From assembly GCF_003334815.1 (NCBI RefSeq), contig NZ_QOWO01000016.1: 64,000 nt of DNA; one strand, 5' to 3'. The DNA comes from Escherichia coli (GTDB lineage Bacteria; Pseudomonadota; Gammaproteobacteria; Enterobacterales; Enterobacteriaceae). Positions 22,162 to 23,103 of the stretch are shown here, piece after piece. The stretch's first letter is position 1; each line of letters starts with the position of its first letter. The notes beneath the pieces were generated by a model. That model ran no database searches. It was not told the origin of the DNA and saw only the letters and a program-made list of their open reading frames with translations. Both the position numbers and the translations under genes were made by a program.

Positions 22162-23103
22162 ATGAGCACTAAATTAACCGGCTATGTATGGGATGGTTGC
22201 GCAGCGTCAGGCATGAAATTATCCAGCGTGGCAATTATGGCCCGCCTGGCTGATTTCAGTAATGACGAAGGTGTGTGCTGGCCATCAATTGAAACCATTG
22301 CCCGTCAGATTGGCGCGGGGATGAGTACCGTCAGGACGGCTATCGCACGGCTGGAAGCAGAAGGCTGGTTAACGCGTAAGGCGCGTCGCCAGGGTAACCG
22401 CAATGCGTCGAATGTTTATCAGCTTAACGTTGCGAAGCTTCAGGCAGCGGCATTTTCTCAACTGTCAGATTCTGACCCGTCAAAATCTGACGCATCAAAA
22501 TCTGACCCGTCAAAATTTGATGCGTCGAAATCTGGCAAAAAAGCGGGTTTTCACCCGTCAGAATCTGGCGGGGATCCGTCAGTAAAATCAAAACATGATC
22601 CGTCAGATAAAAAAACTTCTCGTCCGGACGCTTCGCAACCGGACACGCAGAAGGCTGAACAGGATTTTTTAACTCGCCATCCTGATGCGGTTGTATTCAG
22701 CCCTAAAAAGCGCCAGTGGGGGACGCAGGATGATTTGACCTGCGCACAGTGGCTCTGGAAAAAAATCATCGCCCTGTACGAGCATGCCGCCGAATGTGAC
22801 GGCGAGGTGGTTCGTCCCAAAGAACCGAACTGGACAGCCTGGGCAAACGAAATTCGCCTGATGTGTGTGCAGGATGGTCGTACTCACAAACAAATCTGCG
22901 AGATGTACAGCCGCGTCAGCCGCGATCCGTTCTGGTGCCGTAACGTGCTCAGCCCGTCGAAGCTGCGGGAAAAATGGGATGAGCTTTCCCTGCGCTTATC
23001 GCCGTCCGTCAGCACGTACACAGAAAAACGCGAAGACCCGTACTTCAAAGCCAGTTACGACAATGTGGACTACAGCCAGATCCCGGCAGGATTCAGGGGG
23101 TGA
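22162..23103 (+). CDS. Replication initiation protein (O-like, with DnaT-like C-terminal domain)
   Basis: 313 aa; N-terminal winged-helix region; internal SKSD/PSK repeats; C-terminus ...DNVDYSQIPAGFRG closely matches the host DnaT C-terminus. Confidence 0.6.
   Translation: MSTKLTGYVWDGCAASGMKLSSVAIMARLADFSNDEGVCWPSIETIARQIGAGMSTVRTAIARLEAEGWLTRKARRQGNRNASNVYQLNVAKLQAAAFSQLSDSDPSKSDASKSDPSKFDASKSGKKAGFHPSESGGDPSVKSKHDPSDKKTSRPDASQPDTQKAEQDFLTRHPDAVVFSPKKRQWGTQDDLTCAQWLWKKIIALYEHAAECDGEVVRPKEPNWTAWANEIRLMCVQDGRTHKQICEMYSRVSRDPFWCRNVLSPSKLREKWDELSLRLSPSVSTYTEKREDPYFKASYDNVDYSQIPAGFRG
22465..22560. repeat. Tandem 15 bp iteron-like repeats inside the replication gene (candidate ori)
   Basis: TCTGACCCGTCAAAA / TCTGACGCATCAAAA / TCTGACCCGTCAAAA / TTTGATGCGTCGAAA in tandem, followed by further CCGTCAG motifs and an A-rich tract. 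Confidence 0.5.

Follow-up and report, generated by a model that had tools for sequence, protein, structure and literature searches.

The replication initiator gene examined here lies in a lambdoid prophage within a stretch of 64,000 nucleotides of Escherichia coli contig NZ_QOWO01000016.1 (assembly GCF_003334815.1; hereafter the window), and it carries an array of short palindromic repeats in the middle of its coding sequence. The gene is of the YfdO / SfIV gp41 type, and its closest counterparts, at 99% nucleotide identity, are the genes annotated as 'replication/primosomal/O family' in the Shigella phages SfIV and SfII. Upstream of it lie a cI-like repressor gene on the minus strand, a cro-like gene, a cII-like gene and a small open reading frame (ORF); a PerC-like gene and genes for a Dam-family methyltransferase, a LexA-like repressor, RusA and a KilA-N protein follow downstream. 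The locus is the early-right operon of a lambdoid prophage. We consider it probable, at about three chances in four, that the repeats are initiator-binding iterons of the vegetative replication origin of the prophage, placed inside the initiator gene in the manner of lambda. A preliminary description of this DNA, made from its letters alone, had called the repeats a probable origin, and comparison with related loci supports that assignment through a unique motif, conservation at the level of the DNA, covariation with the N-terminal domain of the initiator, variation in copy number and the domain architecture of the protein. The features of the locus are collected in Table 1.

The 313-residue initiator matches phrog_391 ('replication initiation O-like', E 3e-135), in agreement with the O-like identity first given to it. 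Its homology to lambda O lies in the C-terminal domain (BLASTP E 3e-26, 31% identity, core residues 176-277; tblastn E 2e-23), whereas the N-terminal domain gives no significant BLASTP alignment with lambda O and does not match Pfam Phage_rep_O, matching instead HTH_36 (residues 23-70, E 7.5e-11) and otherwise only generic winged-helix families. An AlphaFold2 model, of low overall confidence because of the linker (mean predicted local distance difference test score, pLDDT, 62), places a winged helix at residues 1-100 (pLDDT 69-89), a disordered segment at residues 103-161 (pLDDT 32-40) and a helical domain at residues 162-279. Foldseek searches of the PDB return only generic MarR/ArsR-like winged helices for the N-terminal domain, a PDB sequence search gives weak MarR-type matches to the winged helix only, Foldseek finds no PDB match for the C-terminal domain, and no NCBIfam family matches the initiator. 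The repeats encode the predicted disordered segment and, as previously proposed, the linker between the two domains. In frame, the units are read as DPSKS, DASKS, DPSKF and DASKS.

Four tandem 15-bp units can be seen directly in the array. Tandem Repeats Finder places it at 22471-22534 with a period of 15 bp (4.3 copies, score 86) or, taken as a 30-bp period, with a score of 100, and it is the only array of such strength in the prophage part of the window. The CCGTCAG motifs (22555, 22576 and 22600) and the A-rich tract (an A7 run at 22609-22615) that the preliminary description had following the tandem units are present, and all of these elements lie within the initiator ORF, as it had stated. 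The array is better described as five palindromic boxes of the form TCARAWTYTGR at a spacing of 15 bp, joined by a sixth, isolated box; the repeat finder gives six copies with successive spacings of 15, 15, 15, 15 and 33 bp. The repeat-bearing stretch begins at 22465 and its dispersed copies reach about 22606. Because every 15-bp unit holds inverted half-sites (TCTGAC..GTCAAA), two palindromic registers are possible for the array. Register A, TGAYNNRTCA, searched as TGACSCRTCA with at most one mismatch, matches the window 40 times (15.8 expected), with 10 of these inside 22473-22605. Register B, TCARAWTYTGR, has nine matches against 0.77 expected, a number reached in none of 100 shuffles, and all nine are confined to 22465-22568 with none elsewhere in the 64-kb window. 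The same motif is confined to the rep gene in the whole 39.8-kb genome of SfIV.

Table 1 Coordinates of the features at the initiator locus (window positions).
Feature	Coordinates	Strand	Description
Replication initiator gene, YfdO / SfIV gp41 type	22162-23103	+	313 aa; phrog_391; 99% nucleotide identity to SfIV and SfII rep
N-terminal winged-helix domain, coding region (aa 1-100)	22162-22461	+	Pfam HTH_36; AlphaFold2 helices and wing
Putative iteron array	22465-22535	n/a	Five boxes: TCAGATTCTGA, TCAAAATCTGA (twice), TCAAAATTTGA and weaker TCGAAATCTGG; includes the tandem units 22471-22530
A6...T4 spacer	22536-22551	n/a	CAAAAAAGCGGGTTTT; between array and isolated box
Isolated imperfect palindrome	22554-22572	n/a	CCCGTCAGAATCTGGCGGG; holds sixth box 22558-22568; nearly invariant in relatives
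Two GATCCGTCAG motifs	22573-22606	n/a	22573-22582 and 22597-22606, 24 bp apart; GATC in each
A/T-rich tract, candidate DNA-unwinding element	22581-22616	n/a	Least stable 30-mers of 22100-23150; AT 70-73%
G+C-rich block	22617-22650	n/a	Palindrome CGTCCGGACG at 22621-22630; about 2nd stability percentile; most stable 30-mers
C-terminal domain, coding region (aa 162-313)	22645-23103	+	Lambda O C-terminal homology; AlphaFold2 helical domain

The A5-7 N5-7 T4 arrangement of the spacer that separates the array from the isolated box is retained in phiNP, Kp4871-1, LLS and phiP27, and YeP2 retains the T run alone. A minus-strand terminator-like hairpin drawn from the same spacer (22544-22557, CGGGTGAAAACCCG followed by T6) was rejected, its stem not being kept in phiNP and Kp4871-1. 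The sole match in an Rfam scan of 20000-26000, a microRNA family on the palindromic array at 30.7 bits against a gathering threshold of 97, is taken as chance.

The period of the array is a multiple of three, its copies all stand in one frame and encode DPSKS-like pentapeptides, the encoded segment is predicted to be disordered and the number of units varies freely, all of which would suit a slippage-prone, low-complexity linker of S, K, D and P residues without any function of the DNA. We regard this explanation as very improbable, and codon-level analyses largely refute it. The codon-position comparison covers six relatives with N-terminal amino acid identities of 80-100%, from phages of Escherichia, Citrobacter, Klebsiella and Yersinia. 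Across them, identity at third codon positions is 0.49 in the N-terminal domain and 0.86 in a 26-codon distal block, where it equals that of positions 1 and 2, so that synonymous positions are conserved like non-synonymous ones. Between the window and Klebsiella phage Kp4871-1, synonymous third-position identity in sliding windows of 20 codons is 0.14-0.59 over residues 1-100, 0.80-0.93 for windows within residues 91-170 and, apart from one stretch at 0.67-0.79, mainly 0.35-0.60 in the C-terminal domain. Among identical residues, the fraction of identical codons in the six pairs is 0.72-0.91 in the linker as against 0.33-0.61 elsewhere (Fisher p 4e-3 to 1e-8). The serine codons of the linker are fixed as TCA or TCT, which make up 15 of its 17 serine codons and, outside the linker, 2 of 19 (p 5e-6).

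Reading frame argues in the same direction. Phage phiP27, with 62% identity in the N-terminal domain, retains GGTTTTGACCCTTCAGAATCTGG one base out of frame with respect to the window, and its isolated palindrome is likewise read in another frame; in a sister family, typified by mEp460_4F5, repeat units of 23 bp are translated in all three frames. A linker kept for its peptide would not account for these shifts, nor for a motif that is palindromic, unique in the genome and covered by a protein footprint in vitro (PMC9181523). The DNA itself is under constraint, over roughly 22445-22655. The linker peptide, being predicted to be disordered, can tolerate such constraints imposed by the DNA.

In the classical lambdoid pattern, the N-terminal domain of O specifies the origin. 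Comparison of mosaic loci indicates that the present repeats likewise go with the N-terminal DNA-binding domain and not with the C-terminal domain. Phage phiNP has the N-terminal domain of the window, a different C-terminal domain and near-identical repeats, and LLS and YeP2, which also combine a window-type N-terminal domain with another C-terminal domain, have more diverged repeats of the 15-bp type. Conversely, mEp460_4F5 shares the C-terminal half of the window gene (97% nucleotide identity) and has another N-terminal domain and other repeats, with a period of 23 bp and 5.4 copies (GGTCAAAATG..., locus L003, 2831-3007); these give way to an A/T-rich 12-bp unit (ACAGAGAATACA) in 3.2 copies. 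The layout of iterons and A/T-rich DNA is clearer in mEp460_4F5 than in the window. For Min27 and ST64B the comparison was of the N-terminal domain and repeats only, without detailed comparison of the C-terminal domains: their N-terminal domains are distantly related to that of the window (43% identity over residues 25-94 and 39% over residues 25-90, respectively), and at the same relative position they carry repeats with a period of 24 bp (2.9 copies) and 12 bp (2.2 copies). TCARAWTYTGR occurs in all 11 of the 11 loci with this type of N-terminal domain, the truncated K-12 remnant yfdO included, and solely in the linker; it is absent from the compared loci with other initiators.

The junction at which the gene halves are exchanged falls at 22607-22640, just past the repeats, the match to phiNP ending at 22640 and that to mEp460_4F5 starting at 22607. 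Near this junction, initiators with different N- and C-terminal modules have in common a G+C-rich stretch, TCT(C/T)GTCCGGACGCTTCGCAACCGGAC, which may belong to the origin or serve as a linker for recombination.

Repeat number, proposed in the preliminary description as a point of comparison among related prophages, ranges from about two boxes to about nine units. There are three 15-bp units in E. coli SC487, four in the window, five in Kp4871-1, seven in 733R5 and about nine in P0047; apart from this difference, Kp4871-1 and 733R5 agree at 99-100% wherever they were compared. A widespread Salmonella prophage with seemingly intact neighbouring genes has only about two boxes left of the array. 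Invariance is greatest not in the array but in a distal block at 22564-22616, of the form TCTGG.GG.GATCCGTCAGTAAA...GATCC.TCA..T.TAAA, which is always retained, also in a Rac-like lineage with only 59% protein identity. The two GATCCGTCAG motifs within it are invariant or nearly so in all aligned relatives, that lineage included. The distal block may matter more than the tandem units. On the evidence of these alignments, the four tandem units are probably auxiliary or dosage-type sites, with the isolated box, the two GATC motifs and the A/T-rich tract as the invariant part.

Such a wide range of copy number, down to about two boxes, is what would be expected of modulatory sites, and the greater invariance of the distal block points the same way. 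The initiator could, on this account, bind the repeats for regulation, by roadblock autoregulation, titration or copy control, with the unwinding or start site elsewhere. Iterons of plasmid origins are indeed known for titration and handcuffing. We nevertheless find this explanation unlikely: no second repeat cluster or similar cluster of motifs exists in the prophage of the window or in SfIV, the array directly adjoins a conserved A/T-rich block, as in lambda, and the extra iterons of lambda and Stx phages are needed for replication (PMC7466680). In the Stx phages 933W and P27, six iterons stand against the four of lambda, the linker is 13 residues longer, and the distal iterons bind weakly yet are required (PMC7466680). 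The distal-core pattern of the window also matches lambda, in which a pair of iterons, those closest to the A/T-rich region, is sufficient in vitro (PMC7466680). As in the Stx phages, iteron number would set linker length, here with 3 to about 9 units of 5 residues each, and an origin within the gene would, if true, explain the variable linker length of the initiator. The Stx phages differ in having a true lambda O and P with iterons of the lambda type, whereas the window has another N-terminal domain, another iteron and no P.

A phage gene for a Dam-family N6-adenine methyltransferase lies close downstream of the initiator in the window (23561-24247) and in several relatives, and is absent from SfIV. 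The aspartate codon in the invariant GATCCGTCAG motifs is always GAT, and GAC is used in three of the four tandem units of the window. The pair of GATC sites, together with the nearby Dam gene, suggests a possible involvement of methylation or SeqA at the putative origin.

In E. coli K-12 the initiator survives as yfdO, a CPS-53 pseudogene between yfdP and yfdN that has lost the first 233 nt of the gene and retained the repeats. It is on this remnant that the boxes have been footprinted. Genomic systematic evolution of ligands by exponential enrichment (gSELEX) with SrsR (YgfI), a LysR-type host regulator, gives its top peak at the 'yfdO/yfdP spacer' with an intensity of 1206, the highest of the other peaks among those compared being 288; a 66-bp DNase I footprint contains four 11-bp boxes, TCAaATTTTGa, TCAGATTTTGa (twice) and TCAGAgTcTGa; and yfdO and yfdK mRNA levels in the K-12 remnant, measured by reverse transcription quantitative PCR (RT-qPCR), shift with SrsR dosage (PMC9181523). 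Read as the reverse complement, the K-12 copy of the array (locus L013, 3072-3126) gives these four boxes. The window boxes at 22480, 22495 and 22510 are identical to K-12 SrsR boxes, of which they account for three of the four, and the box at 22465 is one base off. Judged by this identity, the reported top in vitro target of SrsR is a putative phage iteron array inside a truncated initiator gene; the same DNA stands mid-gene in an intact initiator in the window. The SrsR report describes the region as an intergenic spacer with operator sites in a promoter region and makes no mention of iterons or an origin (PMC9181523). The footprint makes plain that the boxes can be specific protein-binding sites.

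The gSELEX peak, the footprint, the mRNA effects and the identity of the boxes could together be taken to mean that the repeats are mainly SrsR sites controlling downstream yfdN and the rest of the yfdONMLK unit, and not iterons. We hold this to be distinctly unlikely. The 'spacer' is a truncated remnant of the initiator, and intact phages carry the boxes mid-gene with no promoter-like site near, a promoter scan of 22100-23200 having returned no sites. Initiators with other N-terminal domains have other repeats at the same place, which a site for a host factor would not explain. Arrays are kept, and even expanded, in prophages of K. pneumoniae and Salmonella, and no named SrsR cluster was seen in these hosts among 56 close homologues, a weak negative given that many clusters are nameless. 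A study of YgfI by chromatin immunoprecipitation with exonuclease digestion (ChIP-exo) does not mention yfdO or yfdP (PMC9068703), and SrsR has no detectable similarity to the initiator N-terminal domain. A dual role, in which the iterons also serve as high-affinity SrsR sites and SrsR gates prophage replication or the phage senses the state of its host, seems to us rather unlikely. If it were true, a regulator of stress and stationary phase would sit on a phage origin, and the top SrsR target would be a fossil of that interaction. Rereading the SrsR target as the remnant of a phage origin provides a testable link between host and phage.

The comparison with lambda, in which the ori iterons lie inside gene O, was drawn in the preliminary description and is upheld here, the repeats occupying nucleotides 304-445 of the initiator gene as against nucleotides 349-433 of O. 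In both, direct repeats with dyad symmetry lie inside the gene at the domain junction and are followed by A/T-rich DNA (PMC7466680), the C-terminal domains are homologous, and the gene stands downstream of cro and a cII-like gene. The two differ in that the N-terminal domain of the window initiator is of the HTH_36 and not the lambda O type; its 15-bp units abut and have another sequence, whereas the 18-bp iterons of lambda are spaced 20-24 bp; and the window has extra dispersed GATC-containing sites, a shorter A/T tract and no P. The window sequence CCCGTCAGAATCTGGCGGGGATCC (22554-22577) also resembles an imperfect palindrome of lambda, TTCGTCAGAGAATTCTGGCGAATCC (locus L015, 860-885; lambda 39159-39184), which lies to the right of the A/T-rich region. 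The likeness could be due to chance or to common descent of the right-hand part of the origin.

Modules of the Rac type, with a YdaU-like initiator and the DnaC-like YdaV, and of the phiP27 type, with an initiator, DnaC and DnaB, have initiators of the same family as that of the window. Their identity to the window initiator is 59% for the Rac type (P0104) and 62% for the N-terminal domain of phiP27. Both have TGACCC-TCAA-type repeats with a 15-bp period in the same place, and the Rac type keeps both GATCCGTCAG motifs. Unlike them, the prophage of the window, SfIV, phiNP, LLS and others have no loader or helicase of their own, and Weigel and Seitz are said to have named such loader-less modules 'initiator-solo' in 2006. 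At the iteron-bearing origins of plasmids such as pSC101, R6K and RK2, a winged-helix initiator is thought to bind direct repeats beside an A/T-rich unwinding element. Plasmid iterons usually lie outside the rep gene together with DnaA boxes, whereas the window repeats are intragenic and no DnaA box lies near them; TTWTNCACA matches the window 5 times where 5.9 would be expected, and the nearest match, at 26567, is about 4 kb off.

We infer initiator binding, DNA unwinding, helicase recruitment and origin activity from the sequence and its comparisons, and the following order of events would fit them. After derepression, rightward early transcription through cro, the cII-like gene and the initiator gene would supply the 313-residue initiator. 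Its N-terminal winged helix would then bind the five boxes of the array and the sixth, isolated box, and probably both GATCCGTCAG motifs, yielding a multi-protein complex on the very DNA that encodes the disordered linker of the initiator. This complex would destabilise the adjoining A/T-rich tract, and the lambda-O-like C-terminal domain would recruit the host replicative helicase. No lambda P homologue is matched in the window by tblastn and no P-like gene follows the initiator. SfIV, an isolated and viable phage (PMC3851460), has neither a helicase loader nor a helicase in its whole-genome annotation, in which the rep gene is the sole recognisable replication gene; its genome paper mentions the replication module and not an origin or iterons. 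The phage of the window, which lacks genes for P, DnaC and DnaB, probably relies directly on host DnaB-DnaC.

A DnaC-like match at 3448-4185 was ruled out as a phage loader, being the host dnaC beside dnaT. Host chromosome at the start of the window (360-4739, minus strand) comprises opgB/mdoB (360-2651), dnaC (3448-4185) and dnaT (4188-4739). Host dnaC, the presumed loader for the loader-less phage, thereby stands about 18 kb from the putative phage origin, a coincidence of the integration site.

Several observations weigh against an initiator-bound origin in the repeats. The half-sites lie 7-8 bp apart, an unusual spacing for a winged-helix dimer. The A/T-rich tract is about 35 bp long and of only moderate instability, ranking at the 94th-95th percentile across the whole window. 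The intact-looking natural variants P0031, P0015, P0017 and P0068 have lost most of the array, so that the four tandem units cannot all be essential. The boxes have a single published footprint, by host SrsR and on the K-12 remnant (PMC9181523). Without a helicase-loader partner, the mechanism must depart from that of lambda. Lastly, mosaic recombination among phages could inflate the identity of the linker in some pairs.

The origin of this initiator gene is not described in the literature searched, and the gene is widespread: at least 80% of it is found in 1576 of 5426 complete E. coli genomes (about 29%), and it occurs in serotype-converting Shigella phages and, as yfdO, in K-12. A located origin would supply a delimited piece of DNA from which replicons could be built or through which prophage replication could be blocked, and the locus would offer a natural system for studying helicase recruitment by a lambda-O-like C-terminal domain in the absence of P. 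Conceptually nothing is new: the lambda design recurs with its DNA-binding module replaced, a different iteron and P missing.

Two overlapping ORFs in different frames, both with protein families, lie immediately upstream of the initiator at 21814-22172: one of 112 residues (phrog_1170, annotated in SfIV) and one of 59 residues (DUF4222/phrog_1343, annotated by RefSeq in E. coli). Towards the start of the window, a tRNA-Leu(CAG) gene lies at 9290-9376 on the minus strand and the tyrosine integrase gene of the prophage at 12717-13940 on the plus strand. Beside the integrase, an ORF of 595 residues (14104-15891, plus strand) has weak similarity to MzaE, an AIPR-family protein of an anti-phage system (E 1e-9, far under the curated cut-off). 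Finally, a 101-bp tandem repeat at 59213-59598 (3.8 copies, 95% identity), with palindromes (GCCGGATAAGGCGTTCACGCCGCATCCGGCA) like those of repetitive extragenic palindromic (REP) elements, is presumed to be a host cluster of bacterial interspersed mosaic elements (BIME/REP) outside the prophage.

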